A stretch of DNA of 32,000 bases from Halomicrobium mukohataei DSM 12286 (GCF_000023965.1 NC_013201.1:189863-221862), one strand, 5' to 3'; positions 5,066 to 31,973 are shown, counted from the first letter of the stretch. Notes: generated by a model from the sequence alone, not told the origin. Made by a program: numbers and translations.

Positions 5066-5425
5066 ATGACAACAGATATCGAAGCCGAAGCCGGAGCAGG
5101 TACGCCCACGGAGCCAGTCCACGTCGACGGCCAGTCCGAGCTGGACGGCGCGGTCGCCGACTACGAGGTCGTTCTGGCGGACTTCTACGCCGACTGGTGT
5201 GGCCCCTGCCAGATGCTCGAACCGGTCGTCGAGACGCTGGCGGCCGAGACGGACGCCGCCGTGGCGAAAGTCGACGTCGACGAGAACCAGCAGCTCGCGA
5301 CGGCCTACGGCGTCCGTGGCGTGCCCACGCTCGTCCTCTTTGCCGACGGCGAGCAGGTCGAGGAGATCGTCGGCGTCCAGGGCGAAGACGAGCTGCGGTC
5401 GCTCGTCGAACAGTACACGGCGTGA
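5066..5425 (+). CDS. trxA: Thioredoxin
   Basis: 119 aa with the WCGPC active site and the GVRGVPTL motif. The length is typical. Confidence 0.95.
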   Translation: MTTDIEAEAGAGTPTEPVHVDGQSELDGAVADYEVVLADFYADWCGPCQMLEPVVETLAAETDAAVAKVDVDENQQLATAYGVRGVPTLVLFADGEQVEEIVGVQGEDELRSLVEQYTA

Positions 5426-5516
5426 GGCCAGGTAGCGTGTGGTCGAGCGGGCAGCGTCGCGCTGCTCGGATGAAGCCGTAGTTGGTATGTACCTCAGTCT
5501 CCCCTGTGGAGATAGG

Positions 5517-8458: not shown

Positions 8459-8572
8459 CGGGACAGTCGCTCTGACAGCGGGGCCCCCTCGGTCGGCCCA
8501 GCGGTCCGGCGTCTATATAGCCCTCACGCCCGGTCGGTACCACGACGTACCGTCCCCACCCGATGATCGCGG

Positions 8573-8603
8573 TATAGAGATATAATATAAAGCACCTTTA
8601 TCG
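8573..8603 (+). promoter_or_regulatory. AT-rich TATA-like promoter block upstream of the ABC operon
   Basis: TATAGAGATATAATATAAAGCACCTTTAT lies 21-51 nt upstream of GTG 8624 in otherwise GC-rich DNA. Confidence 0.45.
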
Positions 8604-8623
8604 GGATTGCCGGACCACCGCGT

Positions 8624-9769: not shown

Positions 9770-9782
9770 CTCGGGGGCAGCT

Positions 9783-11500: not shown

Positions 11501-11533
11501 ACGCTCGAACACACACTCACGGGAGGCAGACGC

Positions 11534-12559
11534 ATGGTCGCCGTTGAACTCGACGGCGTGGGCAAGACCTACGGCGACGAGGTCGCGGTCGAGGGGCTCG
11601 ACCTGACCGTCGCCGACGGCGAGATCCTCGGCGTCGTCGGCCCCTCGGGCTGTGGCAAGACGACGACGCTGCGGACGATCGCCGGCTTCGAGACGCCGAC
11701 GGCCGGTCGGGTCCGGTTCGCCGACGAGGACGTGACCCACGTCCCACCAGAGCGGCGAAACGTCGGGCTCGTGTTCCAGTCGTACGCGCTGTTCGACAAC
11801 ATGAGCGTCCTCGCGAACGTGGCGTTCGGCCCGAAGATGCAAGGCGTCGAGAAGACCGAGCGACGGGACCGCGCCATGGAGCTGCTGGAGCTGCTCGACA
11901 TCGCCGAACTCGCCGACAGAGCGCCCGAAACCCTCTCCGGCGGACAACAGCAGCGGGTCGGGCTGGCGCGTGCGCTCGCGATCGAGCCGAACATCCTCCT
12001 GCTGGACGAGCCCATGACGGGGCTGGACGCCAAGCTCAAGGATCGGCTCCGGCGCGAGATCGGGAGCCTGCTCGACGAACTGGGCGTCACCGCGCTGTAC
12101 GTGACCCACGACCAGGAGGAGGCGATGGCGATGTGTGACCGGATCGCGGTGCTGAACGACGGCCGCCTGGAACAGGTCGGAACGCCTCGCGAGATCTACG
12201 AGTCGCCCGCAAACGAGTTCGTCGCCGGATTCGTCGGCTCGGCGAACCTACTCGACGCACAGCTCGACGACGGCACGGTCGATCTGGGGTTTACGCGGCT
12301 GCACGCGGTCACGGACGACACGAGCGGGAACGCGACGGTCGTGGTCCGACCCGACGACATCGCGGTCGGCAGCGGTTCGATCCCGGTGACGATCCGGGAG
12401 TACCAGTACCTCGGTGAGACGACCAGCGCCGTCGGCGAGTTGCCCGACGGACAGCAGTTGCGCTTGCGCCTGAACGGCACCGCCGAGGAGACGACCGTCG
12501 GGACCACGGTTTCGGTCGCGATCGACCCCGACGGCGTCGCCGTCGTCGACACCGCCTGA
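11534..12559 (+). CDS. ABC transporter ATP-binding protein (PotA/FbpC-like with a C-terminal TOBE-type domain)
   Basis: Walker A GPSGCGKTT, signature LSGGQQQRV, Walker B LLLDEP and H-loop VTHDQ. Confidence 0.95.
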   Translation: MVAVELDGVGKTYGDEVAVEGLDLTVADGEILGVVGPSGCGKTTTLRTIAGFETPTAGRVRFADEDVTHVPPERRNVGLVFQSYALFDNMSVLANVAFGPKMQGVEKTERRDRAMELLELLDIAELADRAPETLSGGQQQRVGLARALAIEPNILLLDEPMTGLDAKLKDRLRREIGSLLDELGVTALYVTHDQEEAMAMCDRIAVLNDGRLEQVGTPREIYESPANEFVAGFVGSANLLDAQLDDGTVDLGFTRLHAVTDDTSGNATVVVRPDDIAVGSGSIPVTIREYQYLGETTSAVGELPDGQQLRLRLNGTAEETTVGTTVSVAIDPDGVAVVDTA

Positions 12560-18455: not shown

Positions 18456-19013
18456 ATGCCACCGGACGAACGAGAGATCGAGCGGACCATCAGATACGGG
18501 TTAGTAGCGGTCTTCGTCCTGGGGCTCCGTCGTCGCGACCCTGGGACGGTGGTAAACGCCGCCGTCGGCGTGATCGGCACCTACCTGACCGAGTTCGTCG
18601 AGCGAACGTGTGGCGTGAAACTGCAACCGTGGCACCACCTGTACGTCGATACCGCGATGATCACCCACGCCGTGGGAATGCTGGGGCCCTACGACGACAT
18701 CCAGTGGTGGGACCACGTCACCCACATCCACTCGGCGACGATTCTCGGCGGGGCCGTCTTCGCGATCTGTCGGCGGACGGGCCGCGATCCCGGTCCGAGA
18801 GTCGTCGCCGCCGTCGCCTGTGGCGGCCTGCTGTGGGAGCTCGTCGAGTACGCCATCCACGTCGGAGCCGATCAAATCGGCGTCGAGCCGGTCCTCGTGA
18901 ACTACGGCAAGCGCGATACGCTGCTCGATCTGCTGTTCGACCTCGTCGGCGCAGTGCTCGTCCTCGCGCTCGGTGATCGCGTCCTCGGAGATCTGGCGAC
19001 GGCAGATACCTGA
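18456..19013 (+). CDS. Hypothetical membrane protein
   Basis: 185 aa counted from MPPDEREIERTIRYGLVAVFVLG, with 4-5 predicted TM helices. Alternative start at 18429. I recognise no family. Confidence 0.55.
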   Translation: MPPDEREIERTIRYGLVAVFVLGLRRRDPGTVVNAAVGVIGTYLTEFVERTCGVKLQPWHHLYVDTAMITHAVGMLGPYDDIQWWDHVTHIHSATILGGAVFAICRRTGRDPGPRVVAAVACGGLLWELVEYAIHVGADQIGVEPVLVNYGKRDTLLDLLFDLVGAVLVLALGDRVLGDLATADT

Positions 19014-19859
19014 CGAGCCAGCAGAGGGTGAGCGGAAGTGGCGATCCGGCGAGAGAGAGTGGCCAGACGTGACTGTCGAGTGACGTTTAGTCGGCGGGTT
19101 TCCCGAAAGCGACACCGGACGGCGCGTATTGGAGAATCTATCACATCGAATGACAGTATCGGGACCTCTTACAGCATCAGTGGCAGTCATCGAGCCATAC
19201 AAGACAGAACTCGTGCAAAGACGAACGACATCCTGCACTGGGGAAGCGAACGAGCGACCGTCGAGCATCGCTCGACGAACAGTGATCGATACCGGACGAC
19301 AGTACGCTAGTCCAACGATGCTGGATCGCAGTGGGAAAAGAACGAACATCGGACCCGACGGGATAGCGGAGCGGCGTCCCCCGCTGCTCGTCACCGGCCG
19401 ACGGCCTGCTTTACACGCTTAGTTCTGTAAAGCTTGGTGGCAACTAGCTGCTAGCACGGGCGAGCGAGGACACTGGTCAGAGTGTGATCCCGTCGAGAGC
19501 GTCCTACAATGGTCGACTCGACGACGGTAGCTAACTGGATGGGATTTGTATATGACGAATATCGTGTTACCATACAGACTTTTGTTCTCTTTTAGATAAT
19601 ATTGGTCGTGTTTTACTGTACAGTATTTACCAACACAGACCGTACGCGGAGTTCGTCGAGACGTAGCGGCGGTAGCGTGACCGCTCTCCCGCATACAGGC
19701 AGTTTCGAGCGATATTGGACGATCGTATGGCATAAGTGGATGTTCTCCGTGGGACGACTTCGGCTTCGCCGTGCGTCGACGCGCGTGGACGGTCGACCGT
19801 ACCGTCGGACAGCAGCGTTCCAGTTGGTGCGGCAAGGCCCTGGACTACCCGGTGTCGGA

Positions 19860-20627
19860 CTACGTGTACGTGATGTTGAGTTCGATGACGTTGGCGACGC
19901 TCTTGAGCTTCGCAGGGAGTTCCGAACGGAAGCGATCTCCCTGGAGTCGGCTCGTCGGTCCGGAGACGCTGATCGCGCCCTCGACGACGTCGTCGTTGTT
20001 CACGATCGGGACGGCGACACACCGCAGGCCCTTGACGCGGGCTTCGTCGTCGAAGGCGACGCCCTCGGTTCGAACGCGTTTCAGGCGCTCGAACAGTTCG
20101 TCGCGTTCGGTGATCGTGTTCTCGGTCATCCCCGGGAGGCCGTGTTGCTCGATGATCTCGTCGACGCGTTCCTCGGGGAGGTGTGCGAGGATCGCGTTAC
20201 CCAGCGCCGTGCTGTGGAGGTTGACCCGCTGGCCGACGTAGGAGTCGGTCTTGACGGCGTCGGCTCCGTGATCCCGGTGGATGTAGATCCCCTTGCCGTT
20301 CTCCTCGACGAGGAGGTTCGCCATCTCGCCGGTCTCCTCGGCCAGGTCGGTCACTTCGTCACGGGCGATGTCGTATATCTGCTCTCTGTGTCGGGCCTTG
20401 CCCCCGAGCGCGAGGTGTTTGAGACTGAGCCGGTACGTGCTGCCGTCCTTGACGACGTAGCCGTCCCCTTCGAGCGTGCTCAGGTAGTTGTGGATGCTGC
20501 TCTTCGACAGCGAGAAGGCGTCGGTCAGCTCCATCAGACTCGCCTCGTTGCGGCGGCGCAACTCTTCGAGGATCTGGAAGGCCGTTTGCACTGACTGTAT
20601 CTCGCCGGAGTTGTTCCGTTGGGGCAT
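19860..20627 (-). CDS. IclR-family transcriptional regulator
   Basis: 255 aa counted from MPQRNNSGEIQSVQTAFQILEEL (N-terminal wHTH) plus a C-terminal IclR effector-domain pattern (AVPIVNNDDVVEGAISVSGP). TATA-like CTTTATTATC lies about 25-35 nt upstream on the minus strand. Confidence 0.9.
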   Translation of the reverse strand: MPQRNNSGEIQSVQTAFQILEELRRRNEASLMELTDAFSLSKSSIHNYLSTLEGDGYVVKDGSTYRLSLKHLALGGKARHREQIYDIARDEVTDLAEETGEMANLLVEENGKGIYIHRDHGADAVKTDSYVGQRVNLHSTALGNAILAHLPEERVDEIIEQHGLPGMTENTITERDELFERLKRVRTEGVAFDDEARVKGLRCVAVPIVNNDDVVEGAISVSGPTSRLQGDRFRSELPAKLKSVANVIELNITYT

Positions 20628-20802
20628 CGGTGTCGTCTTTCCCGTGTGTGATAATAAAGCTACTCCACCAATACTGAACGGCGGTCGCCGATGTCCGAAC
20701 GGGCGGTGGTCCGTGTCCCACGAAAAATCGGCTGCTAGGGGCTGGACACCGGCGGTCGAGGCTTCCAAAGAGGCTAAATGAGTGGGGCCTAATCGACCAG
20801 AT

Positions 20803-21606
20803 ATGCGTCAGATGCCAGCGATTGGACTCGGTACGTGGCAAAACACCGACCCGGACACCTGTCGAGAGAGCGTCCGTCTCGCACTCGAAGCGGGCTACCG
20901 CCACGTCGACACCGCACAGTACTACGACAACGAACGGCTCGTCGGAGAGGGCATCGCCGAGGCCGACGTGCCCCGAGAGGAAGTGTTCGTCGCGACGAAA
21001 GTCCACGCCGAGAAGTTCGGACTCGCCCACGAGGAAGTGATCGAGGGACTGGAAGCCAGCCTCGACCGCCTCGGACTCGACTCGCTTGACCTGCTGTACG
21101 TCCACTGGCCGGTGGGCAACTACGATCCCGCGGAGACGATGCCGGCGTTCGACGAACTCCGAGAGCGGGGCCTGATCGACCACGTCGGCCTGAGCAACTT
21201 CTCGGCCGAACTCCTCGACGAGGCGCTTGCTGAGCTCTCCGCCCCGCTGTTTGCCCACCAGGTCGAGATGCATCCGCTGCTCCAGCAGGACGAACTGCTG
21301 GCTCACGCACGCGAACACGACTACAACCTCGTGGCCTACTCGCCGCTGGCACGCGGGAACGTCTTCGAGCTGCCCGAACTCCAGTCGATCGCGGAGAAAC
21401 ACGGCGTCAGTGAGGCACAGGTCAGTCTCGCCTGGCTCCAGTCCAAAGGCGTGGTGACGCCGATCCCGAAGGCGTCGAGCGAAGAACACATCCGCGACAA
21501 CCTCGCGTCGCGCGAACTCGAACTCGACGAGGAGGACGTCGAGGCGATCGAGGCGATCGACCGGACCGAGCGGTTCGTCGAGCGCGACGGCGCGCCGTGG
21601 CTCTGA
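20803..21606 (+). CDS. Aldo/keto reductase, 2,5-diketo-D-gluconate-reductase-like subfamily
   Basis: AIGLGTWQ start. The catalytic tetrad context is HVDTA (D), QYYDNE (Y), VATK (K) and YVHWP (H). The C-terminal part has IPKAS..EHIRDN. Alternative ATG at 20812. Confidence 0.92.
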   Translation: MRQMPAIGLGTWQNTDPDTCRESVRLALEAGYRHVDTAQYYDNERLVGEGIAEADVPREEVFVATKVHAEKFGLAHEEVIEGLEASLDRLGLDSLDLLYVHWPVGNYDPAETMPAFDELRERGLIDHVGLSNFSAELLDEALAELSAPLFAHQVEMHPLLQQDELLAHAREHDYNLVAYSPLARGNVFELPELQSIAEKHGVSEAQVSLAWLQSKGVVTPIPKASSEEHIRDNLASRELELDEEDVEAIEAIDRTERFVERDGAPWL

Positions 21607-21665
21607 AACCGGCGATCGTCCAGTAATTCGCGACCGCGATCGAGAAGCAGTGACGGCCGACAGTG

Positions 21666-22763
21666 TCACCAGGACGTGATCGTCACGTCACGCAGCGGTC
21701 GGTCGAGGGGAACGTCGACGACGCCGCCGGTGTAGTGTGAGACGTAGAAGCCGACGATCATCTCCAGGGATCGCACGGCCTCCTCGCCGGGCGAGTAGTT
21801 CTCCGATTCACCCGCGAGGAGGTCCTGGACGTGGGCGGCGGCGTTGGCGAAGGAGTTCTTGTAGTCGTCGTCCCAGGTCCACTCGCCGTCGATGCTGTCC
21901 AGTGGCGTCTCGACGTGTTCGCCGTCTTCGAGCCGCCAGTAGCGCCACTCGCCGTCGTCGTTGTTGAGATAGAGTTTCCCCTCGGTGCCGACGAAGTTCA
22001 GCGTCATCGAAGAGATATCGCGGGGAATCGTACAGTCGACCGTCACGAAGGTCCCGTCCTCCATGACCACGTAGCCGCCGCCACCGGCGTCGTCGACCGT
22101 CTCGTCGACGTCGAGCGAGTCGACGGCCTCGTTTTCGCCGGTGATGTAGCCGTTGACCTCCCGTGGCACCGTATCGAGCAGGAAGACGAGCGTGTCGAGG
22201 ACGTGTGTCGAGTTGCGCATCAGCTCCATGCGGTACTGGGTGCTGACCGACCGCACGTCGCCCAGAATGTTCTCGTGCTGGATGAGATAGCGGAGCCGCT
22301 GGAGCTTCTCGGTGAACCGAAACGAGTGGTTGACGACCAGTTCCGTCCCCGTCTCCGCGCAGGTGTCGACCATCTCCTGTGCCCGGGACACGTCCGAGGC
22401 GATCGGCTTCTCACACCAGATCACGTCCGGATCGGCGGGCGACTGTGCGGCGTCGATCGCGTGGCCGTCGTGGAGATACGACGGCGTACAGATCGAGACC
22501 ACGTCGAGGTCTTCGCTCGCGAGCATCGTCTCGTGGTCCAGATAGCGGCCACTGTCGGGGATGTCCCACGCGTCGCCGAACGTGTCGAGCTTGTCCTCGT
22601 CTACGTCCGCGACGGCGACGAGTTCGATCTCCGACGTGCTGGCGTAGCCGCCAGCGTGACTGGCGTCGATCTTTTCGTTTCCGATGGCGTCCTCGTCGTG
22701 CATCCCGAGGATGCCCATGCCGGCGATACCGCCCGTTCCGATGATCGCTGCGTTGTAGCTCAT
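21666..22763 (-). CDS. Gfo/Idh/MocA-family NAD(P)-dependent oxidoreductase
   Basis: N-terminal AIIGTGGIAG Rossmann motif and the CEKPIA family motif. 365 aa. Confidence 0.9.
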   Translation of the reverse strand: MSYNAAIIGTGGIAGMGILGMHDEDAIGNEKIDASHAGGYASTSEIELVAVADVDEDKLDTFGDAWDIPDSGRYLDHETMLASEDLDVVSICTPSYLHDGHAIDAAQSPADPDVIWCEKPIASDVSRAQEMVDTCAETGTELVVNHSFRFTEKLQRLRYLIQHENILGDVRSVSTQYRMELMRNSTHVLDTLVFLLDTVPREVNGYITGENEAVDSLDVDETVDDAGGGGYVVMEDGTFVTVDCTIPRDISSMTLNFVGTEGKLYLNNDDGEWRYWRLEDGEHVETPLDSIDGEWTWDDDYKNSFANAAAHVQDLLAGESENYSPGEEAVRSLEMIVGFYVSHYTGGVVDVPLDRPLRDVTITSW

Positions 22764-22838
22764 AGTGGTCTGTGGTTCTGCGTCGTCGAGTCAAGCCGGA
22801 TGGCTGGAGCCACTGCTCGACTGACCCATGCGAAGCTC

Positions 22839-22879
22839 TTTCGACACCGCTATTTATAAATCCTTGAGTTTCCGCACCG
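22839..22879. promoter_or_regulatory. TATA box TATTTATAAA flanked by two direct repeats, TTTCGACACCG and TTTCCGCACCG
   Basis: The repeats are at 22839-22849 and 22869-22879, and the TATA box at 22851-22860. The block lies in the divergent intergenic region between the oxidoreductase and DUF2264 genes. Confidence 0.4.
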
Positions 22880-22978
22880 AACGAGAGCATGCTGTCGGCC
22901 ACATCGGCGGTCGGAGGGCCGGCCGCGCGTCGAGGGCAGAGCCACAACATACATTGTCCACAGCGCGGTTGGGGTGGT

Positions 22979-24814
22979 ATGGGAAATCCAGTCACGGAGA
23001 ACCCACTGGAGACGCGGTCGGACGTACAGCGAGCGGTGCGACAGCTCGTCGCACCCCTGGAAGCACACCACAGTCCGGGCGGGGCACTCGTTCGCGTCGG
23101 CGCGGCCGGCGCGTCGTTCCCGAACCACGAAGCGGGGATCGAGGGGTACGCTCGCTCGCTGTGGGGCCTCGCCACACTCGCGGCCGGCGGCGGCGAGTTC
23201 GACGGGTGGGAACGGTATCGGGCGGGACTGGTCAACGGAACGGACCCGGATCACCCTGAGTACTGGGGCACGATCGCCGACGGGCGACAGAAGGTCGTCG
23301 AGGGCTCCTGTCTGGGAATGGCGCTCGGGCTCGTCCCCGAGCGGCTCTGGGAGCCACTCGACGAGGCGGAACGCGAGCGAGTACAGACCTGGCTGACGGC
23401 GGCCAACGGCGAGTGGATCCCGGACAACAACTGGCGCTTTTTCCGGGTGCTGGCCAACGTCGGGCTGTCGTCGGTCGGTGCCTCGTTCGACCGCCAGCAG
23501 GTCGCGACCGACCTGGACCGTCTGGAAACGTTCGCGCTGGAGAACGGCTGGTACGCCGACGGTCCGGACGCCCCGGTCGACTACTACTGTGCGTGGACGA
23601 TGCACGTCGAGGGGCTCCTCTACGCCTGGCTGGCCGAGGACGATGCCGAGCGAGCGGCCCGGTTCAGGCGGCGGGCGGTCGAGTTCGCAAGCGAGTACCG
23701 CCACCTGTTCGAGCCCAGCGGGCGCGCGGTCCCCTACGGCCGGAGTCTCACCTACCGGTTCGCCCAGGCCGCGTTCTGGGGCGCGCTCGCGCTCGTCGGT
23801 CGAGACGCCGACCTCCCGTGGGGCGAGATCAGGGGGCTGTGGCTCCGGAATCTCCGGTGGTGGTTCGACCAGCCGATCTTCGCCGCCGACGGGACGCTGA
23901 CCGTCGGCTACCGCTACCCCTCACAGAAGATGACCGAGCGGTACAACTCCCCGTCCTCGCCGTACTGGGCGTTTCGGGCGTTCCTGCCCCTGATCGCCGA
24001 CGCGGACCACCCCTTCTGGACGGCCGAGGAACGGCCGCTGCCCGAACTCGACCGCCAGCGGCCGATCGAGGCGGCGGACCTGCTCGTCCGGCGCGGGCCG
24101 GACCACGTCGTCGCGTTCACCGGCGACACCGCCACGCCCCGCTACCGGAACAAGTACGACAAGTTCGCCTACTCCAGTCACTTCGGGTTCGGCGTCGACG
24201 ACGGGATCGCCGGACTCGACGCCTGTGGAATCGACAGCACGCTCGTGGTCAGTACGGACGGCGAGCACTTCCGCGGACGGACGGCGGACCTCGACGGCAG
24301 CGTCGACGACGGCGTCGCGGCGTCGACGTGGGACCCCTTCGACGACGTGACAGTCAGGACGAAGGTGCTCCCGGTCGGACCGTGGCACGTCCGCATCCAC
24401 CAGCTCGAAGCCGCGCGAGCGATCGAGACCGCGGAGGGCGGCTTCGCGCTGCCGACGACCGAGGAACGGTACGCCGACGACGTACGAGAGACGACCGAGG
24501 GACAGATGGCGGCGGTGTCGTTCGAGGACTTCAGCGGTCTCCGGGCCGTCGGCGGCGGGAACCGCTGTGAGCCAGCGGTGACCACACCGGTCCCGAACAC
24601 GAACGTCCAGCATCCCCGTACCGCGGTCCCGGTCCTCTCTCGCTCCTTCGAGCCCGGCAGTTACCGGTTCGCGTCGGCCGTCCTCGGCGTGCCGGGGACA
24701 GCCAGCCCGACGGCCTGGACCGAACCGCCGACCGTCGAGTGGACCTGGTCGGGGGTCACCGTCGGCGACGGCGAGGGAGAGACGGTACAGACAGTCAGTC
24801 TCGAACAGAAGTAG
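22979..24814 (+). CDS. DUF2264-domain protein (alpha/alpha-toroid, lyase/hydrolase-like; function unknown)
   Basis: Matches my recollection of the DUF2264 pattern: GIEGYARSLWGLA ... GTDPDHPEYWG ... NNWRFFRVL ... ENGWYADG. No signal peptide. ATG 22889 is an alternative start and would make the transcript leaderless relative to the TATA box at 22851-22860. Confidence 0.78.
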   Translation: MGNPVTENPLETRSDVQRAVRQLVAPLEAHHSPGGALVRVGAAGASFPNHEAGIEGYARSLWGLATLAAGGGEFDGWERYRAGLVNGTDPDHPEYWGTIADGRQKVVEGSCLGMALGLVPERLWEPLDEAERERVQTWLTAANGEWIPDNNWRFFRVLANVGLSSVGASFDRQQVATDLDRLETFALENGWYADGPDAPVDYYCAWTMHVEGLLYAWLAEDDAERAARFRRRAVEFASEYRHLFEPSGRAVPYGRSLTYRFAQAAFWGALALVGRDADLPWGEIRGLWLRNLRWWFDQPIFAADGTLTVGYRYPSQKMTERYNSPSSPYWAFRAFLPLIADADHPFWTAEERPLPELDRQRPIEAADLLVRRGPDHVVAFTGDTATPRYRNKYDKFAYSSHFGFGVDDGIAGLDACGIDSTLVVSTDGEHFRGRTADLDGSVDDGVAASTWDPFDDVTVRTKVLPVGPWHVRIHQLEAARAIETAEGGFALPTTEERYADDVRETTEGQMAAVSFEDFSGLRAVGGGNRCEPAVTTPVPNTNVQHPRTAVPVLSRSFEPGSYRFASAVLGVPGTASPTAWTEPPTVEWTWSGVTVGDGEGETVQTVSLEQK

Positions 24815-24823
24815 CAGCGACCG

Positions 24824-26161
24824 TCAGTCCGCCAGCGAGGCGCTGAACGCGCCGTCGTCGAACTCGATCGGCGTCGCTTCCTCGACGACCCGGAGGTCCT
24901 CGCGCTGGCGTGCGTCCTCGATCAGGGCCTCGGAGGCGAAGAAGCGAGCGAGGTGCATGGTGTCACGCGCCCGGACCACGCGAACGGTCTCGGGATCGAC
25001 GACGCCGATGGTCGAGAGCGCCGCGACGAGACCGGCCCTGTCGCTCTCGACGACCGGCGGCAGACGGACGCCGCGGACGGTGCTGGCGGTGAGCGCGTTG
25101 ATCAGGGTCGTCTCGGCGTCCAGCTCGGCGACCACGTCCTCGTGGATCAGGTCCGCCGAGCCGACGCCCATCGCGTTGCCGTGGGTCGCCGCCGTCAGCC
25201 CGCGGGTGTAGATGCGCTTGATCGTCGGCTCGTCGGGTGCCGGCTCGTTGATCGCGAAGGCCCGACGGCCGATGACGTTCGTGTCGAGCCCCTGGCCGCT
25301 GATGTCCTTGCCCTGTCTGTCGAACACGACCACGTCGAGCTCCGAGAAGGGCAGCGTCGGCATGACATCGTAGGCCCGTTCGAGCAGTTCCCGCTCGCGG
25401 TCGAGGAAGCCACCCGGTGGGACGCCCTCGATCAGCGTCGTCTCGTCGTGCTGATCTTCCAGCAGGGCGATCCCGCCCACGACCGGCAACGCGTCGAGCA
25501 GCTGCCCGGCGATCTCCGGGATCATGTTCCGGAACGACCAGTCGACGGCCCACTCGTGGGCGATCTTCGCGCCCCGTTGCTTGCCCATCCCGATGACGAG
25601 CATCTTCGAGAGCCCGCTCTCGACGGCCCCGTCGAAGTCGGTGTGGGGCTTGACGCGGTTGATCGGGACGATGGCGTCGGCCCCGGCGGCGTGGGCGTCG
25701 GCGACGACCGGCACGTCCCGCTCGGGCGTTCGGCCCACCTCGACCACGTCCATGCTGGACCGGATCTCACAGCCGATCGACGACTCCGTGACGCCCAGTT
25801 CCGCGAGCATCTCGGCCTGTCCCTCGCCGGTCGCGCCGCCGTGGCTCCCCATCGCCGGGAAGACGAACGGATCGTACCCCCTGTCTTCGAGCGTCGAGAC
25901 GGCCGCTGCGACGATCTCGGAGACGTTGTCGATTCCCCGGCTGCCGACGCCCAGCGCGATCTCGCCGCCCGCGGGCACGTCGTCGAGTTCGAGAGCATCG
26001 ACGGCGCTCTCGACGTGGGCGTCGATGGCCGCGGCCGGGATCGGATCGGTCTCCCAGACCTGTTCGACGACACCGAGTTTCGGGAGGTCGAGATCGCCAC
26101 ACGCGTCGACGATCGTCGCCTCCGGAACCGAGAGTTCGCTGGCGCTTTGGTTTCGCTCCAT
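24824..26161 (-). CDS. Conserved protein of unknown function, possibly the LarA-N-terminal-like (DUF2088-type) family
   Basis: 445 aa counted from MERNQSASE. Conserved-looking blocks are GVGSRGI, FPAMGSHGGATGEGQ and NRVKPHTDF. The gene is clearly real (acidic, good codon bias), but the family label is from memory and uncertain. Confidence 0.55.
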   Translation of the reverse strand: MERNQSASELSVPEATIVDACGDLDLPKLGVVEQVWETDPIPAAAIDAHVESAVDALELDDVPAGGEIALGVGSRGIDNVSEIVAAAVSTLEDRGYDPFVFPAMGSHGGATGEGQAEMLAELGVTESSIGCEIRSSMDVVEVGRTPERDVPVVADAHAAGADAIVPINRVKPHTDFDGAVESGLSKMLVIGMGKQRGAKIAHEWAVDWSFRNMIPEIAGQLLDALPVVGGIALLEDQHDETTLIEGVPPGGFLDRERELLERAYDVMPTLPFSELDVVVFDRQGKDISGQGLDTNVIGRRAFAINEPAPDEPTIKRIYTRGLTAATHGNAMGVGSADLIHEDVVAELDAETTLINALTASTVRGVRLPPVVESDRAGLVAALSTIGVVDPETVRVVRARDTMHLARFFASEALIEDARQREDLRVVEEATPIEFDDGAFSASLAD

Positions 26162-26266
26162 GCGCCCACTGTGTGGCGAGAGCGTCATAAACGTGGCTGA
26201 TACCGCCGGTCGGCGGGTGTCGACGGATCTCAAGATTTAAGGGTCGAACTGCCGCCTATCGAACTG

Positions 26267-27118
26267 ATGCGCTTCGTTCGATACACCGACGGAACGACCC
26301 CAGCGTGGGGTCTGGAACGCGAACAGACGATTCACGCACTGTCCGATCTCCCGTGGGGAGAGCCGTCACTGAACGACCTCGCGAACCCCAGCTACCGATC
26401 ACACGTCGCAGCCCGCATCGAGAACGGGGCGTCGACGCAGATCGATCCCACCGCTGTGTCGCTGCTCGCACCGGTGCCACAGCCGGGCAAGATCGTCTGC
26501 TGTGGCCTCAACTACCACGATCACGCCCAGGAGCAAGACGAGACGGTGCCGGACAGCCCGATGCTGTTCGGGAAGGCCCCGACCGCCGTCACCAACCCGG
26601 CAGATCCGATCGTCCACCCCGATCCCGAGGGGCCGCCCCAGGTCGACTACGAGGTCGAACTGGCCGTCGTCGTCGGCGACACGATCTCCTCGGTCGACGA
26701 GGCCGACGCCTACGACCACATCGCCGGCTACACCGTGCTCAACGACGTGAGCGAGCGAACGGCCCAGAACGAAGACGGGCAGTTCTTCCGGGGCAAGAGC
26801 TACGACACGTTCGCCCCGATGGGGCCGCGACTGGTCACCGGCGACGACATCGATCCGAACGCCCTCGACGTGGAGTTGCGCGTCGACGGCGAGACGAAGC
26901 AGTCCTCGAACACCGAGCAGTTCATCTTCGACGTGGGCGAGCTCGTCGCCTACATCAGCGATGCCATGACGCTGCGGCCCGGCGACGTGATCTCGACGGG
27001 GACGCCCGGCGGCGTCGGCATCTTCCGCGATCCGGTCGAGGTGCTGGAACCGGGCCAGACGGTCGAGGCAGAGATCGAAGGTATCGGAACGCTTCGGAAT
27101 CCGGTCGTCGGCCGATAG
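26267..27118 (+). CDS. Fumarylacetoacetate hydrolase (FAH)-family protein (beta-diketone hydrolase/decarboxylase/hydratase superfamily)
   Basis: GLNYHDHA, EVELAVVVG, GKSYDTFAPMGP and GTPGGVG are all typical FAH-family blocks. Confidence 0.9.
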   Translation: MRFVRYTDGTTPAWGLEREQTIHALSDLPWGEPSLNDLANPSYRSHVAARIENGASTQIDPTAVSLLAPVPQPGKIVCCGLNYHDHAQEQDETVPDSPMLFGKAPTAVTNPADPIVHPDPEGPPQVDYEVELAVVVGDTISSVDEADAYDHIAGYTVLNDVSERTAQNEDGQFFRGKSYDTFAPMGPRLVTGDDIDPNALDVELRVDGETKQSSNTEQFIFDVGELVAYISDAMTLRPGDVISTGTPGGVGIFRDPVEVLEPGQTVEAEIEGIGTLRNPVVGR

Positions 27119-27225
27119 GGGCGACGAGCGCGGCCGGCGGAGTCGGTCGTACTGTCGGCCGTCCATCTGTCCGCGATTTCGATATCCCGACAGCGAATCC
27201 CGTTACGAAGTGACAGCCGACGGTA

Positions 27226-28557
27226 TCAGGCGCGATCGGGAACCACGAGGACCACGATGTCGTTGACGTTCGTTCCCGTGGGGCCGGTCCGAATCGTCGC
27301 GTCCGTCTCGCTCAGGAACCGGCCCGCGTCGTTGGCGGCGAGCGCCTCTCGGGCGGCCGCCCGATCCGTGACCGTCTCGCCGTCGACGAGCGCGCCAGCG
27401 ACCGCCGAACTCCCGTCCTCGCCGTCGCTGTCGACGGCGGCGACGATCGTCTCGCCGGTCAGTTCGATCCCGGCCGACAGCGCGAGTTCCTGGTTGGGAC
27501 CGCCGGTCCCGCCCTCGCCGGTGATCGAGACGGTACACTCCCCGCCGGCCAGCACGACTGCCGGCGGTTCGATCGGGTCGCCGGTGGCGGCGATCTCCTC
27601 GGCGACGGCCAGCAAGGTCGTGCCGGCCTCGCGGGCCTCGCCACGCAGGCGCGAAGTCACCACGAGCGGCGTGTACCCCGCCTCGCGTGCGACATCGCGG
27701 GCCGCGTCGAGCGCCAGCGCGTTGTCCCCGACCAGGTGCGTCCGGACGCGCTCGGCCGACAGCGCAGCGGTGGTCGGCGTTTCCGACCGCCGACCCGCGT
27801 CCCCGGCCGCGAGGTGCGAGGCGACGGCGTCCGGCGGCGTAACGTCGTACCATTCGAGCACGGCCAGGGCGTCGCCGTAGGTCGTCTCGTCCGGGACCGT
27901 CGGCCCACTGCCGATGGCCGACAGGTCGTTGCCGACGACATCCGAGAGAACGAGCGTTGCGACCGTGGCCGGCGCGGCCGCCCGTGCGAGGCGGCCCCCC
28001 TTGACCTCCGAGAGGTGTTTGCGGACCGCGTTGATTTCGTGGATGGGCGCGCCGCTGTCGAGCAGCAGCGCCGTCGTCTCGCGGAGTTCCGTCAGCGAGA
28101 GGTCGCCGGCCGGAGCCGTCAGGAGTGCGCTCGTCCCGCCGGTGACGACCGGGAGCACGAGCGTCTCGGCGTCGGCGGCCGCCACCAGTTCCAGCAGGTC
28201 GGTCGTGGCCCGGACGTTGCGCTCGGACGGAAGCGGATGGTCGCCGGTGACACACCGGACGCGGTCGCCGTCGGTCGGGTGTTTGGTCACGACCAGTCCG
28301 TCGGTAACGTGGTCGCCGAGGATCGATTCCAGCGCGGCGACGACGCCGCTGGCGGCTTTCCCGCCGCCGACGACGAACACGTCGCGGTACGCGGTGAGGT
28401 CGTACTCGGTGTCGGCGATCGACAGCGTTTCATCCGTGACAGAGACGGCCGACCGGATCGCCGCTTCGGGTGCCGCGGCGGCGATCGCGCGTTCGAGACA
28501 GTCGAGTGCGAGAGCGTGGTCCGGACTGCGCTCCAGTGTCGCTCGGTTCTCGATCAT
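27226..28557 (-). CDS. Glycerate 2-kinase (DUF4147 + MOFRL domains)
   Basis: VVGGGKAASG, LAGGECTVSITGEGGTGGPNQELAL, DSDGEDG and the C-terminal TGPTGTNVNDI. Confidence 0.9.
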   Translation of the reverse strand: MIENRATLERSPDHALALDCLERAIAAAAPEAAIRSAVSVTDETLSIADTEYDLTAYRDVFVVGGGKAASGVVAALESILGDHVTDGLVVTKHPTDGDRVRCVTGDHPLPSERNVRATTDLLELVAAADAETLVLPVVTGGTSALLTAPAGDLSLTELRETTALLLDSGAPIHEINAVRKHLSEVKGGRLARAAAPATVATLVLSDVVGNDLSAIGSGPTVPDETTYGDALAVLEWYDVTPPDAVASHLAAGDAGRRSETPTTAALSAERVRTHLVGDNALALDAARDVAREAGYTPLVVTSRLRGEAREAGTTLLAVAEEIAATGDPIEPPAVVLAGGECTVSITGEGGTGGPNQELALSAGIELTGETIVAAVDSDGEDGSSAVAGALVDGETVTDRAAAREALAANDAGRFLSETDATIRTGPTGTNVNDIVVLVVPDRA

Positions 28558-28652
28558 GGCTCACCGTGCGTGCTCCGACCCAAAAGAGTGTGTGTTCGAG
28601 AGCGGGCAAAGTGGCAGTGGATTTAATACCATCCGATTAATTCGCCAACAGT

Positions 28653-29528
28653 ATGCAGATCGAACACCCCTACACCGGCGACGGGCGTTGGCTGCGAGGG
28701 AACCTCCACACGCACACGACGGAGACCGACGGCGCGGACACCGTCGAGGAAGTACTCGACGCCTACGAGTCGATCGGACACGACTTCCTCGCAATCTCTG
28801 ACCACGACCTGCTTGTCGATCCCGACCGGTATCGGGCGGACACGTCGCTGACGCTGTTGCCGGCCGTCGAAGTGACGGCGAACGGCACCCACGTGGTACA
28901 CGTCGGGGCGACGGCGGTCGTCGAGCCGCGGGCGGACCGCCAGGCCGTCGTCGACGACATCCGAGAACAGGGGGCGATGGCGATCCCCGCACACCCAAAC
29001 TGGGAGGCCGACTTCGACCACTGGCCACAGCGCCGGCTATCGGAGCTGACCGGCTATCACGGCATCGAGATCTACAACGGCAACATCGAGCGGTGCCCGG
29101 GCACGCCGCTGGCGACCGATCGGTGGGACCAGCTCCTGTCGGCCGGGCGGCGCGTCTGGGGCTTCGGAACGGACGACACCCACGACGCGGTCGATATCGG
29201 GAACGCCTGGACGGTCGTACAGGTGGCCGAGCGAACGCCCGCGGCGGTGCTCGAAGCCCTGACTGCCGGACAGACGTACGTCTCGACCGGCGTCGATATC
29301 GAGCGAATCGCGGTCGAGGACGGGAGCATCGAACTCGACGCGAGCGAGCGCGTGACGGCCCGTCTGGTGAGCGACTGGGGGCGGGTCCAGCGAACGAGAG
29401 CGGGCGAGACGGTCCGATTCCACCTGCCGGACGATCTGGTCTACGGACGGGAGCACAGCTACGTTCGAGTGGAATGTCGTGGCCGGGGCGACGACGCGGC
29501 CTGGACCCAGCCGTTCTACCTGGCATAG
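28653..29528 (+). CDS. PHP-domain / CehA-McbA-type metallohydrolase
   Basis: GNLHTHTTETDG (HxH) with SDHD and further His/Asp metal ligands. 291 aa. Confidence 0.72.
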   Translation: MQIEHPYTGDGRWLRGNLHTHTTETDGADTVEEVLDAYESIGHDFLAISDHDLLVDPDRYRADTSLTLLPAVEVTANGTHVVHVGATAVVEPRADRQAVVDDIREQGAMAIPAHPNWEADFDHWPQRRLSELTGYHGIEIYNGNIERCPGTPLATDRWDQLLSAGRRVWGFGTDDTHDAVDIGNAWTVVQVAERTPAAVLEALTAGQTYVSTGVDIERIAVEDGSIELDASERVTARLVSDWGRVQRTRAGETVRFHLPDDLVYGREHSYVRVECRGRGDDAAWTQPFYLA

Positions 29529-30701
29529 ATGGAGCGGGGCTATCGACACGTCGTCCTCGCGAGTTGCGTGCTCGCCTTCTTCGGGAGCCGCGTCGGCCAA
29601 CTCGTCATCAGTCCGCTCGTCCCAGAGATCACCGGGGCGTTCGAGGTGTCGAAGGGGTCGATCGGTGCGGCGCTGACGGGCATGTGGGCCGCGTACGCGC
29701 TCGTGCAGTACCCCGCCGGTGTCTTCGGTGACCGGTTCGGCGAGCGCCCGGTCGTGCTGGTCTCGCTCGCGACGGCGGCCGTCGGAAGCGTCCTGCTCGC
29801 CGTCGTGGCGACCTTCCCGCTGTTCGTCCTCGTCGTCGTCGCCCTGGGCGCGGGCGTCGGACTGTACTACAACGCCGGGACGACGCTCCTCGCTCGGGAG
29901 TTCGACGGCGTCGGTCGAGCGATCGGCGTCCATCGGATCGGCGGACAGGCGGCGGGCCTGCTGGCCCCGATTTCGGTCGCGGCCGTGAGCGTCCGGTTCG
30001 GCTGGCGGGCCGGGTTACTGGTCGGGGTCGTCGCCGCGCCGATACTGCTCCTGTTCTGGGCGGCCGTCCGGCCCACGCCGCCGCGTCGGCCGGACGTGAG
30101 CGTCCGTCGACAGTTCGACGCGGGCTTGCTCCGGGACATCCTCTCTCGGCCGGTGCTGGCCTACGGGACGGCGGTGGCCGTGCTCGCGGAGTTCGTCGGG
30201 ATGGCGGCCACGTCGTTTCTCCCGACCTTTCTGGTGGCGGCACAGGGGTTGTCCCTCCAGCGAGCGAGCCTGCTGTTCTCGCTTTACTTCGTCGTCCTGG
30301 CGGTCGCCCAGCCGGCGACCGGCTGGCTGTCGGACGCCGTCGGTCGCGCCCGAGCGACGATGCTTGCCCTGGCGAGTGGCGTCGCCGGGTACGCCCTGCT
30401 GGTCGGTGCCACGGGCCTGGTGCCGGTCGTCGCCGGGGTCACGCTGGCCGGGTACGCGATGAGCTGGAGCACGCCGATCCAGGCGCTCTTTCTCGATCAG
30501 CTCGGCCGAGCGGAGCGGGGCACCGGCTTCGGACTCGTGCGGACCGTGTACGTCTTGCTCGGGTCGCTCGGGAGCGTCGTCACGGGCGGCGTCGCGGATC
30601 GGCTGGGCTGGACGGTCGCGTTCGGCATGCTGGGTCTCGTGCTCCTGTCGGCGGCGGGGCTCGTCGGCGCGGCACAGCTCGCGAACGTCGAAGCGTCGTG
30701 A
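29529..30701 (+). CDS. MFS transporter
   Basis: 390 aa, about 12 TM segments, with the MFS loop motif GVFGDRFGERP. The ATG directly abuts the upstream TAG. Confidence 0.88.
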   Translation: MERGYRHVVLASCVLAFFGSRVGQLVISPLVPEITGAFEVSKGSIGAALTGMWAAYALVQYPAGVFGDRFGERPVVLVSLATAAVGSVLLAVVATFPLFVLVVVALGAGVGLYYNAGTTLLAREFDGVGRAIGVHRIGGQAAGLLAPISVAAVSVRFGWRAGLLVGVVAAPILLLFWAAVRPTPPRRPDVSVRRQFDAGLLRDILSRPVLAYGTAVAVLAEFVGMAATSFLPTFLVAAQGLSLQRASLLFSLYFVVLAVAQPATGWLSDAVGRARATMLALASGVAGYALLVGATGLVPVVAGVTLAGYAMSWSTPIQALFLDQLGRAERGTGFGLVRTVYVLLGSLGSVVTGGVADRLGWTVAFGMLGLVLLSAAGLVGAAQLANVEAS

Positions 30702-30702
30702 T

Positions 30703-30725
30703 GGTGGCCGCTCGCCGCGGCCACC
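30703..30725. terminator. Hairpin between convergent genes (GGTGGCCGC-tcgcc-GCGGCCACC)
   Basis: 9-bp perfect stem starting 2 nt after the MFS stop and ending 23 nt before the GH88 stop. Confidence 0.5.
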
Positions 30726-30747
30726 GCACCGAGAGGTCGGTCGGCGG

Positions 30748-31950
30748 TTACCAGAACCGGTCGTAGTGTCGGGTCGCCCGGACGAGCGCCTCGACGTAGA
30801 AGTAGTCGCCCCAGATGCAACACTCGCCGTAGTCGCCGTCCGACGGGTGGTACGCACCGTCGGTCAGGAGTCCGTTCGAGTCCGCGCCCGCGGTGTAGTG
30901 CTCGGTGAGACTGGCCAGCGTCGCCAGCGAGGCGTTGCGGTAGGCCGGGACGCGCTCGTCGCCGCTTGGCAGCTGTCGGGAGAGTTCGTCCAGCCCGCAG
31001 GCGGCGACGGCGGCGGCCGAGCTGTCTCGGATCGCCGGGTCAGTCGGGGCGTCGAAGTCCCACAGCGGGACGTGGTCGTCCTCGACGTGCGAGAGGTAGT
31101 AGTTCGCGACCTTGGCCGAGAGCCCCGCGTAGGCAGCGGTGTCGAGGTAGTCGGCGGCGACCGCGTAGCCGTAGATCGCCCACGTCTGCCCGCGCGACCA
31201 GCAGGAGTCGTCGTCGTACCCCTGGGCCGTCTCACCACCCAGTGGCGTCCCGTCATCGACGGTACACCGGAACGTGTGAAACGTCGAGGCGTCCGGGCGG
31301 ACGATGTGGGCGGCGTTCGTGCGGGCGTGGGAGGCCGCGATAGCTCGGTACCGCGGCTCTTCCGTGACCTCGCTGGCCCACAACAGCAGCGGGAGGTTCA
31401 TCATCGTGTCGACGATCATCCGCCCGCGGTTCTCGTCGTCTTCGTCGTCCATGCTCCCCCAGGCCTGGAGGAGCCCGGGAGCCTGCCAGTAGCGGTCGGT
31501 GAGCAGATCGGCCCCGCGGAGCGCGATCGATCGATACCGCTCCTCGTCGGTGAGCCGGTAGCCGGCGACCGCCGACAGCGTGTACAGAAAGCCCAGATCG
31601 TGCGTCTCGACGAGGCCGTCGTCGAGGCGGTGCGCGAACGTCTCCAGTTGTGCCTCGGCGGCGTCTCTGAACCGCCGCTGGCCGGTCACGTCGTAGGCGA
31701 GCCAGCACAGTCCGGTCCAGAAGGCGGTCGTCCACCCGTCGGTGTTGTCGGTCGACCCGTAGACGAGGTCGTCGCTCGAAGCCGTCGGGAACCGGTCGTA
31801 GTACCGGTCGAGGTTCTCGCCGATCCGCTCGATCGCGTCCGTCAACGCCCGTTCTAACTGTTCCTGGCTTCGCTCGGGCCGCTCGAAGTATCGGTCGGGA
31901 AGCGCCGGTTCGGTCACTGCGGCCGCGAGCGCCTGAGGACTTCGGCTCAT
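30748..31950 (-). CDS. Glycoside hydrolase family 88 (unsaturated glucuronyl/uronyl hydrolase)
   Basis: DGWTTAFWTGLCWLAY, THDLGFLY (catalytic Asp context), SCWSRGQTWAIYGYA and DSSAAAVAACGLDEL. No signal peptide. Alternative ATG at 31965. Confidence 0.88.
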   Translation of the reverse strand: MSRSPQALAAAVTEPALPDRYFERPERSQEQLERALTDAIERIGENLDRYYDRFPTASSDDLVYGSTDNTDGWTTAFWTGLCWLAYDVTGQRRFRDAAEAQLETFAHRLDDGLVETHDLGFLYTLSAVAGYRLTDEERYRSIALRGADLLTDRYWQAPGLLQAWGSMDDEDDENRGRMIVDTMMNLPLLLWASEVTEEPRYRAIAASHARTNAAHIVRPDASTFHTFRCTVDDGTPLGGETAQGYDDDSCWSRGQTWAIYGYAVAADYLDTAAYAGLSAKVANYYLSHVEDDHVPLWDFDAPTDPAIRDSSAAAVAACGLDELSRQLPSGDERVPAYRNASLATLASLTEHYTAGADSNGLLTDGAYHPSDGDYGECCIWGDYFYVEALVRATRHYDRFW

Positions 31951-31973
31951 TCGCTTCGAACTCACTCCAGACG

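Follow-up and report, generated by a model that had tools for sequence, protein, structure and literature searches.

A GH88 locus on a plasmid of Halomicrobium mukohataei and a possible diketo-hydrolase route for unsaturated uronates in haloarchaea

How do archaea dispose of the unsaturated uronate that glycoside hydrolases of families GH88 and GH105 set free? The fate of this compound is a gap in archaeal metabolism. The sole paper on the degradation of acidic polysaccharides by haloarchaea assumes that it is handled by an isomerase, a reductase, a kinase and an aldolase, as in the bacterial Kdu route via 2-keto-3-deoxygluconate (KDG), and leaves the downstream genes undiscussed (PMC13260240). 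We analysed a stretch of 32,000 nucleotides from Halomicrobium mukohataei DSM 12286 (NC_013201.1:189863-221862; hereafter the window), in which a set of ten genes encodes a GH88 hydrolase together with an aldo-keto reductase (AKR), a Gfo/Idh/MocA-type oxidoreductase (Gfo), a LarA-like protein, an FAH-family hydrolase and a MOFRL-type glycerate kinase. We propose that the latter five enzymes would convert 4-deoxy-5-hexosulose uronate (DHU), the product of GH88 and GH105, into pyruvate and 2-phosphoglycerate in five steps. We give this pathway an even chance of operating in H. mukohataei, its catalytic steps and the division of the redox roles between AKR and Gfo being predictions from sequence.

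A preliminary description of the same DNA had listed the ten genes as a contiguous set. All ten are present at the coordinates given in Table 1, with family matches, and coordinates, families and short gaps agree with that description. Coding potential is clear across them (G+C at third codon positions 0.81-0.90, acidic proteins; G+C of the window 67%). The gaps between the genes do not exceed 215 bp, and therefore no additional gene is hidden in the 12-kb region. Nor is the arrangement due to chance, because the same genes recur together in five other haloarchaea, namely Halomicrobium katesii, Halomicrobium sp. LC1Hm, Haloarcula sp. GH36, Haloarcula sp. JP-L23 and Halocatena salina.

The genes of the Kdu route are missing. 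Pfam searches revealed no cupin, short-chain dehydrogenase/reductase (SDR), KDG kinase or aldolase domain in the 12-kb region. No gene for KduI, KduD, KDG kinase (KdgK) or 2-keto-3-deoxy-6-phosphogluconate (KDPG) aldolase (KdgA) was found in the window, including the 19.8 kb before the locus, or in the 28 kb past it. The downstream region was read from the replicon NZ_CP039376.1 (221,861 bp) of H. mukohataei JP60, in which the 12-kb stretch is 100% identical and to whose positions 6581 is added to obtain window positions. A query with E. coli KduI gave zero matches in the window or in any of the ~95 related loci fetched, and none of the KduI matches on plasmids was haloarchaeal among the 40 listed out of 441, which were spread from best to weakest. 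The earlier reading of a cytoplasmic GH88 locus without KduI/KduD is thus upheld on both sides of the set, and the adjoining Kdu genes that it had named as the finding that would speak against it are absent from the flanks.

The stereochemistry of DHU determines what such a locus could do with it. DHU keeps C2 and C3 of the glucuronate or galacturonate from which it stems. By nomenclature, reduction of C1 followed by renumbering gives 3-deoxy-L-threo-hex-2-ulosonate, that is, 2-keto-3-deoxy-L-galactonate, which is the 6-hydroxy analogue of 2-keto-3-deoxy-L-fuconate and not KDG. The C5 configuration is the same as in L-fuconate and L-rhamnonate, which yield L-lactate. This compound is an intermediate of the fungal D-galacturonate pathway, where an aldolase cleaves it to L-glyceraldehyde. 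Reduction of 4-deoxy-5-hexosulose uronate by an AKR has precedent in alginate catabolism, in the reductases of abalone and bacteria; the alginate-derived compound is the erythro isomer and gives KDG.

We propose that the AKR would reduce the C1 aldehyde of DHU to 2-keto-3-deoxy-L-galactonate, and that Gfo would oxidise C4 of the product to a 2,4-diketo acid, the 6-hydroxy analogue of the intermediate of the L-rhamnose and L-fucose pathways. The FAH-family hydrolase, which resembles RhcF of the Haloferax L-rhamnose route, would then cleave this (5S)-5,6-dihydroxy-2,4-dioxohexanoate. Since the C5 configuration is that of the RhcF substrate, cleavage would yield pyruvate and L-glycerate. MOFRL kinases are known to use D-glycerate, and a racemase would therefore be needed, a role that we assign to the LarA-like nickel-pincer enzyme, which would convert L-glycerate to D-glycerate; the MOFRL kinase would finally form 2-phosphoglycerate. 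Formation of L-glycerate would explain why a 2-hydroxy-acid racemase is found beside FAH and kinase: a LarA-type enzyme would act between these two partners, and one chain employs all five enzymes. The earlier scheme had the AKR produce KDG, which is corrected here, and it gave the LarA-like protein no role. Its outline, a route to pyruvate and glycerate, is retained in view of the homology between FAH and RhcF and of the recurrence of the gene module. We found no description of such a route in literature on GH88 together with FAH, glycerate kinase and KduI, or on 2-keto-3-deoxy-L-galactonate together with L-glycerate, in keeping with the earlier view that a uronate diketo-hydrolase pathway is undescribed.

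The hydrolase had been placed among the diketo-hydrolases, and the comparison with characterised enzymes supports this. FAH shares 60.9% identity over 281 of 283 residues with RhcF of Haloferax volcanii, a characterised 2,4-diketo-3-deoxy-L-rhamnonate hydrolase, and also matches LRA6 (PDB 8gsr, E 2.7e-52). It scores below the cut-off of the RhcF equivalog model (NF053535, 214 bits versus 500), and there are no rhc genes in the locus; it is therefore a paralogue of RhcF, not RhcF itself, and probably acts on a substrate different from but related to that of RhcF. Nearer orthologues (65-76% identity) are located not among rhamnose genes, but divergently beside a LarA-like gene, a pairing that is kept in at least six genera.

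The LarA-like protein had been listed as a conserved unknown, with a query whether it might resemble the N-terminal part of LarA. RefSeq labels it 'DUF362', it has no Pfam match, and searches of PDB sequences with the single protein and with a 23-sequence profile found nothing. It does match the curated NCBIfam model for 'nickel pincer cofactor-dependent isomerase, group 22' (NF052515), with a score above the cut-off. An AlphaFold model built from 23 close homologues was poor (pLDDT 54) and was replaced by one from a 40-sequence alignment including Bacillaceae homologues, which carry Pfam Lar_N; this second model has a pLDDT of 89. The top 18 Foldseek matches to it are all members of the LarA family (E 6e-11 to 5e-8, TM 0.43-0.58 over ~320-450 columns), among them malate racemase, lactate racemases and LarA-like nickel-pincer enzymes, with the next match at E 9e-4. 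Across 34 homologues, drawn from haloarchaea and from many phyla of bacteria, residues H116, H182, K195 and H211 never vary. The spacings H116-H182 and K195-H211 (66 and 16) equal those of H108-H174 and K184-H200 in Lactiplantibacillus LarA, a comparison of residue numbering rather than of superposed structures. In LarA, H108 and H174 are the catalytic histidines, K184 the cofactor-tethering lysine and H200 the nickel-binding histidine. As modelled, the protein is a full-length LarA-fold nickel-pincer enzyme of group 22.

Homologues of LarA racemise glycerate (PMC11770544), and we propose that the LarA-like enzyme is an L-/D-glycerate racemase. Haloferax volcanii is reported to have homologues of larB, larC and larE (HVO_0197, HVO_2381 and HVO_0190) and no recognised LarA, an open annotation issue (PMC8305020), and the group-22 protein is an obvious candidate for the user of the haloarchaeal nickel-pincer cofactor. 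Group-22 'DUF362' proteins share 72-80% identity across many genera and have more than 5500 database homologues at E <= 1e-5. Their gene neighbours in haloarchaea include LudBC L-lactate dehydrogenase, D-2-hydroxyacid dehydrogenases, glycerate kinase and FAH, and in bacteria FAD-linked D-hydroxyacid oxidases, zinc alcohol dehydrogenases and SDRs. Those neighbours that are functionally informative all act on small 2-hydroxy or aldonic acids, and those in Haloplanus, Salinibaculum and others are uninformative housekeeping genes.

Some further contexts of the LarA-like gene deserve mention. In Haloferax gibbonsii (pHGLR1) and Haloferax massiliensis it lies between GH28 and pectate lyase genes, which links the enzyme to pectin breakdown too; two other Gfo/Idh/MocA paralogues and an IclR gene are found nearby. 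An operon in a metagenome-assembled Bacillota genome (stretch 2313-12113) encodes a sigma-54 PrpR-type activator, a DUF1537 four-carbon acid-sugar kinase, a TRAP transporter, PdxA, a LarA-like protein and a NicO-like membrane protein, which suggests that the group-22 enzymes of bacteria epimerise tetronates at C2 and have a nickel supply of their own. We also considered the LarA-like enzyme as an L-gulonate/L-idonate 2-epimerase in a route from saturated glucuronate, acting after the AKR and before a dehydrogenase. This was rejected for the present locus, where GH88 and the dehydratase described below leave no free glucuronate; it is a possible role for those bacterial homologues that adjoin genes for a zinc alcohol dehydrogenase and a KduD/IdnO-like SDR.

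The AKR is nearest to the NCBIfam model DkgB, below its cut-off (219 bits versus 327). Its orthologues are 70-75% identical in the corresponding Haloarcula and Halocatena modules, and a 62% identical one is divergent to GH88 in Halorhabdus tiamatea. Membership of the newly described nickel-pincer AKRs (PMC13524815) was considered and set aside, as the protein reads as a canonical DkgB-like enzyme with the usual D/Y/K/H tetrad motifs. The kinase carries both domains, DUF4147 and MOFRL, by which MOFRL glycerate 2-kinases are recognised, and lies below the archaeal glycerate 2-kinase equivalogs modelled on the Thermoproteus and Thermoplasma enzymes (247 bits versus 550, and 165 versus 670). In 8 of 46 species loci its gene is the immediate neighbour of the LarA-like one; runs of GH105, kinase and LarA-like genes occur in Haloarcula, with the same trio in another order in H. 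urmianum. The IclR protein is 45% identical to an IclR gene product of the Haloferax rhc cluster, orthologues with 66-76% identity to it border the corresponding module in both Haloarcula and Halocatena, and it is probably the local regulator of the set.

Gfo is proposed to be the C4 dehydrogenase that would make the 2,4-diketo acid. No other gene is found beside the LarA-like gene as often (10 of the 46 species loci). Haloferax volcanii encodes a protein 74% identical to Gfo on pHV3, where its gene comes immediately after a GH105-like one and borders on the rhamnose cluster. The pHV3 region from 96 to 119 kb, adjoining that cluster, contains genes for GH28, a sulfatase-like protein, an enolase-superfamily protein, a short NAD-dependent oxidoreductase, a KdgD-like protein, a GDSL esterase, 2,5-dioxovalerate dehydrogenase and GH105 with Gfo, and has the appearance of a rhamnogalacturonan locus that includes an oxidative branch for uronates.

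The argument that the module acts on DHU comes from its distribution. We scanned species-representative genomes, anchored on the LarA-like protein, and inspected annotated plasmids in addition. All seven of GH88, DUF2264, AKR, Gfo, LarA-like, FAH and kinase are found in Haloarcula sp. GH36, and Haloarcula sp. JP-L23 has the five module genes (AKR, Gfo, LarA-like, FAH and kinase) with a GH105/YteR-like hydrolase and L-rhamnose mutarotase. Five other Haloarcula species combine GH105, LarA-like, Gfo, AKR and an ABC importer, with the kinase in four of the five and no FAH within 10 kb. Halocatena salina has Gfo, LarA-like, AKR, DUF2264, GH88, an ABC importer and GH2; Halorhabdus tiamatea has DUF2264 and GH88 divergent to AKR; GH105, kinase and LarA-like are found in Haloarcula sp. 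CBA1115 and H. urmianum. In Halorussus halophilus the set is reduced to kinase, LarA-like and FAH, and there is no hydrolase gene within 10 kb. Each of the five module genes thereby adjoins an unsaturated-uronyl hydrolase gene in several haloarchaeal genera. The loci differ in the enzymes for the remaining sugar, with beta-galactosidases in the GH88 loci and rhamnose mutarotase in the GH105 loci. Because GH88 and GH105 cleave different glycosides and DHU is the sole product that they share, we conclude that DHU is the likely substrate of the module; this is our main argument.

Several observations weigh against the proposed pathway. The PDB matches of Gfo are limited to the Rossmann domain, so that its specificity cannot be read from the sequence, and it is not homologous to the known 4-dehydrogenases of diketo routes, RhcE being a zinc alcohol dehydrogenase. 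FAH is absent within 10 kb in the five Haloarcula GH105 loci and in Halocatena salina, and the kinase is absent from some loci; there, those steps would need to be supplied from elsewhere. The LarA-like gene is also found in many contexts unrelated to uronates. Finally, a comparison of the six divergent intergenic regions of the locus at word lengths of 10 and 12, allowing mismatches and covering both strands, gave no shared operator beyond the level of shuffled controls. That haloarchaea in general degrade unsaturated uronate by a non-phosphorylative diketo-hydrolase route, needing a nickel-pincer glycerate racemase to serve a D-specific kinase, is a tentative proposal to which we accord somewhat less than an even chance.

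The absence of FAH from several loci would be accommodated by a Kdu-like route built from unrelated enzymes, in which DHU is converted to ordinary KDG and passed to the chromosomal semiphosphorylative Entner-Doudoroff pathway with its KDG kinase and KDPG aldolase. In one version, the LarA-like enzyme would take the part of KduI by moving a hydride from C2 to C1, and the DkgB-like AKR that of KduD by reducing the 5-keto group; in another, the AKR would reduce DHU, Gfo would oxidise C5 and a second reduction would follow, with FAH and kinase serving another substrate. AKR, Gfo and LarA-like are indeed the commonest genes beside GH88 and GH105, the AKR is nearest to 2,5-diketogluconate reductases, and KduD-like SDR genes (~42% identical to E. 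coli KduD) adjoin bacterial LarA-like genes in several loci; the KDG route is also what the 2026 paper on haloarchaeal glycosaminoglycan degradation assumes (PMC13260240). However, FAH and kinase would be left without a role, though both adjoin the LarA-like gene in several genera and form a trio on their own in Halorussus. Moreover, characterised LarA enzymes act on 2-hydroxy acids, not on 2-hydroxy aldehydes, and both presumed catalytic histidines are retained, as in racemases. We consider the two versions together unlikely.

A slightly less probable alternative is oxidative entry, in which Gfo would oxidise the aldehyde of DHU to 5-keto-4-deoxy-D-glucarate. This would proceed to alpha-ketoglutarate, with KdgD and 2,5-dioxovalerate dehydrogenase encoded elsewhere, or, through an aldol-type cleavage, to pyruvate and tartronate semialdehyde, which the AKR would reduce to glycerate for the kinase. 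The H. volcanii orthologue of Gfo fits such an oxidation and counts against our assignment: its gene follows the GH105-like gene and lies ~3-8 kb from genes for a KdgD-like protein of the DHDPS family and a 2,5-dioxovalerate dehydrogenase (815 bits, cut-off 750), accompanied by enolase-superfamily and short NAD-dependent oxidoreductase genes. The chemistry is established, as oxidation of DHU at C1 gives exactly the intermediate of the glucarate/galactarate pathway, which in E. coli ends with a glycerate kinase. Yet the H. mukohataei locus has no KdgD, aldehyde dehydrogenase or class II aldolase, FAH and the LarA-like enzyme would be roleless, and tartronate, the product expected if a diketo-hydrolase acted on the dicarboxylate, is no source of glycerate. 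In addition, the usual substrates that enzymes of the Gfo family oxidise are ring hemiacetals or secondary alcohols and not aldehydes in open-chain form.

Least probable of all is that the module degrades the leftover sugar or an unrelated acid sugar and is tied to GH88 by shared regulation only: the FAH/LarA-like pair does occur without GH88 or GH105 beside acid-sugar dehydratases and a four-carbon acid-sugar kinase in Haladaptatus and beside a mannonate dehydratase in Halocatena marina, and the LarA-like gene has many further contexts, but the module accompanies two hydrolase families whose leftover sugars differ (beta-galactosidases versus rhamnose mutarotase), rhamnose already has its own rhc genes, and the locus has no sugar dehydrogenase, lactonase or acid-sugar dehydratase to start such a route.

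The proposed diketo-hydrolase pathway would receive DHU from an upstream half of the locus, part of which lies past position 32000. After GH88 follow a CUT1-type ABC importer, whose binding protein carries a Tat lipoprotein signal, a LacZ-type GH2 beta-galactosidase (1033 amino acids), a PL8 lyase (1131 amino acids, with a Tat signal and CBM96) and an rRNA operon. A look beyond the window for lyases and sulfatases had been recommended; the lyase is there, and there is no sulfatase gene in the locus, nor are there hexosamine genes. By structure matches, the PL8 protein is most closely related to xanthan lyases from Bacillus GL1 and Paenibacillus (E 2e-156); chondroitin AC lyases and hyaluronate lyases rank behind them.

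GH88 itself is weakly matched in Pfam, and matches the unsaturated glucuronyl hydrolase (UGL) of Bacillus sp. GL1 (PDB 1vd5 and 2ahf) over residues 38-405, which span the entire (alpha/alpha)6 catalytic domain, and streptococcal UGLs (E 9e-75). Its 400-residue coding sequence starts five codons downstream of the longest open reading frame, and RefSeq start codons were taken wherever they differ from that of the longest frame. As described earlier for GH88 and the DUF2264 protein, the N-termini show neither a twin-arginine motif nor a hydrophobic signal, and we predict that GH88 is a cytoplasmic unsaturated glucuronyl hydrolase.

The DUF2264 protein, which had been a bystander in the earlier scheme, can now be given a function that feeds GH88. 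Its family, GH154, was reassigned in 2025 as beta-D-glucuronate 4,5-dehydratase, which converts saturated glucuronate at the non-reducing end into the GH88 substrate (PMC12269599). The protein matches the glucuronate dehydratase structures PDB 9o4u and 9nwf (E ~1e-26 to 3e-26). Of the ten active-site residues whose mutation kills the activity of the Bacteroides caccae enzyme, BcGDH, it keeps eight (N176, N177, W178, F181, Y229, R285, Y289 and Y354), and the other two, E74 and R78, fall outside the aligned stretch. We therefore regard it as a predicted GH154-type uronate dehydratase that prepares chain ends for GH88.

According to this model, the secreted, Tat-dependent PL8 lyase would cut an acidic polysaccharide outside the cell and the ABC importer would take up the resulting oligosaccharides. 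In the cytoplasm, the GH154 dehydratase would turn saturated glucuronate ends into the 4,5-unsaturated ends on which GH88 acts, and the LacZ-type GH2 would handle the leftover galactoside. On this view, the window covers the cytoplasmic half of a locus that resembles those for polysaccharide utilisation and is carried by the H. mukohataei megaplasmid.

Such a locus had been called unusual for an archaeon, which no longer applies: growth of haloarchaea on hyaluronate and chondroitin by means of plasmid-borne loci with PL8, GH88, GH154, GH2 and ABC genes was published in 2026, with the locus of Halomicrobium sp. LC1Hm as a comparator (PMC13260240). An acidic-polysaccharide locus in an archaeon is therefore already known, and it is the downstream gene module that has not previously been discussed. 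PL8, GH88, GH154 and an ABC importer are all present on the H. mukohataei plasmid, as in the published loci, and the LC1Hm locus is 95% identical to that of H. mukohataei. A glycosaminoglycan, one of the substrates suggested in the preliminary description, is nonetheless doubtful, because LC1Hm did not grow on hyaluronate or chondroitin (PMC13260240) and the PL8 protein is nearest to xanthan lyase; the xanthan-lyase-like PL8 together with the beta-galactosidase argues against a classical glycosaminoglycan.

In the GH105 loci of four Haloarcula species, a conserved protein of ~690 amino acids without a Pfam match is encoded next to the binding-protein gene (18692-20743 of the fetched stretch in Haloarcula japonica; one of three orthologues is called at 500 amino acids). 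Perhaps it acts on the imported oligosaccharide as a lyase or hydrolase of a type not yet recognised.

Table 1. Genes of the GH88 locus of H. mukohataei, with positions counted from the first nucleotide of the window.
Gene product	Position	Strand	Family evidence
IclR regulator	19860-20627	-	Pfam IclR_C 2.8e-43 and HTH_IclR; RefSeq coding sequence 255 amino acids
AKR, DkgB-like	20803-21606	+	Pfam Aldo_ket_red 4.8e-66; nearest NCBIfam model DkgB
Gfo/Idh/MocA NAD(P) oxidoreductase	21666-22763	-	Pfam GFO_IDH_MocA 2.7e-18 and C-terminal domain
DUF2264 / GH154-type uronate 4,5-dehydratase (predicted)	22979-24814	+	Pfam DUF2264 1.6e-125 and DUF2264_C
LarA-like nickel-pincer isomerase (predicted)	24824-26161	-	NCBIfam NF052515, 489 bits (cut-off 400); Pfam none
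FAH-family hydrolase	26267-27118	+	Pfam FAA_hydrolase 1.8e-68
MOFRL-type glycerate 2-kinase	27226-28557	-	Pfam DUF4147 1.7e-76, MOFRL 4.5e-27
CehA/McbA PHP metallohydrolase	28653-29528	+	NCBIfam NF038032, 105 bits (cut-off 80); Pfam PHP matches weak
MFS transporter	29529-30701	+	Pfam MFS_1 2.7e-48
GH88 unsaturated glucuronyl hydrolase (predicted)	30748-31950	-	Weak in Pfam; PDB 1vd5, E 5e-84

Two of the ten genes stand apart from the scheme. The start codon of the MFS transporter gene directly follows the stop codon of the PHP metallohydrolase gene, pointing to translational coupling. Among the related loci, the metallohydrolase is found only in H. katesii and an orthologue of the transporter only in Halomicrobium, so that the two appear to be an accessory pair confined to this genus.

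On the right, the complete 16S-23S-5S rRNA operon (NZ_CP039376.1 ~37.9-42.9 kb; 26933-31924 of the fetched stretch) directly follows the PL8 gene and therefore marks the border of the locus; with an rRNA operon on board, the 222-kb 'plasmid' behaves like a small chromosome. On the left, the first 19.8 kb of the window are unrelated to the locus and encode sulfur and phosphate transport, proline biosynthesis, another ABC transporter and stress proteins. The proline genes proC, proB and proA (5439-8458) thus reside on the megaplasmid, adjoining genes for thioredoxin and a TrmB-type regulator. Between 18000 and 19860 the G+C content falls to ~0.60, and the open reading frames at 18501-19394 and 19419-19835 match no family; the PLSDB gene table, itself incomplete, lists no gene in the ~850 bp from 19013 to 19860. 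This low-G+C stretch may be the left border of an acquired island.

If the proposed pathway is correct, it would add a third way of breaking down DHU to those via KduI/KduD and DhuI/DhuD, and uronates would join 6-deoxy sugars and pentoses as substrates of diketo-hydrolase chemistry. The pathway predicts both a stereochemical problem, in that L-glycerate is formed, and the enzyme that solves it. It would also provide a first physiological role for the orphan larBCE genes of haloarchaea and for LarA group 22, whose members are often labelled 'DUF362' in RefSeq, and so bears on a question raised in the literature, namely for what purpose haloarchaea retain larB, larC and larE when they lack a recognisable LarA. 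The presence of the module beside GH88, GH105 or GH154 could serve to flag uronate-using haloarchaea in genomes and metagenomes.

Among the known systems, the polysaccharide half of the locus resembles the chondroitin locus of Bacteroides caccae (PL35, GH88 and BcGDH), in which a lyase, GH88 and a GH154 dehydratase also come together (PMC12269599), and the PL8/GH88/GH154 loci of Natronoarchaeum and Haloarcula H-hyl, which are likewise plasmid-borne and include an ABC importer and GH2 (PMC13260240). It differs from both in that its PL8 is nearest to xanthan lyase and carries CBM96, and in the absence of sulfatase and hexosamine genes. With the LarA superfamily, in which glycerate racemisation is documented, the LarA-like protein shares the full predicted fold and a curated model, but it has diverged beyond a match to Pfam or to PDB sequences, and we found no characterised member of group 22.

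The bacterial route via KduI/KduD (or DhuI/DhuD) and KdgK/KdgA starts from the same compound, DHU released by GH88 or GH105, and serves the same purpose. In contrast, the haloarchaeal loci examined have no KduI, the locus in the window has neither SDR, KDG kinase nor aldolase, and the end products would be pyruvate and 2-phosphoglycerate, reached without KDG or KDPG.

A further likeness is to the L-rhamnose route of Haloferax (RhcB-F) and the bacterial routes for L-fucose and L-rhamnose with LRA5 and LRA6. In these, as in the scheme proposed here, oxidation of a 2-keto-3-deoxy acid at C4 prepares it for an enzyme of the FAH family, which releases pyruvate and an L-2-hydroxy acid. The Haloferax rhc cluster and the H. 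mukohataei locus also both have genes for an IclR regulator and a CUT1-type ABC transporter. The rhamnose and fucose routes, however, start from an aldose via a dehydrogenase, a lactonase and a dehydratase, whereas the route proposed here would start from DHU, the product of a glycoside hydrolase, via a reductase. The 4-dehydrogenase of Haloferax, RhcE, is a zinc alcohol dehydrogenase, and the candidate here belongs to the Gfo/Idh/MocA family. Finally, the rhamnose route ends in L-lactate and LudBC, whereas the uronate route would arrive at L-glycerate and continue through a racemase and a kinase.

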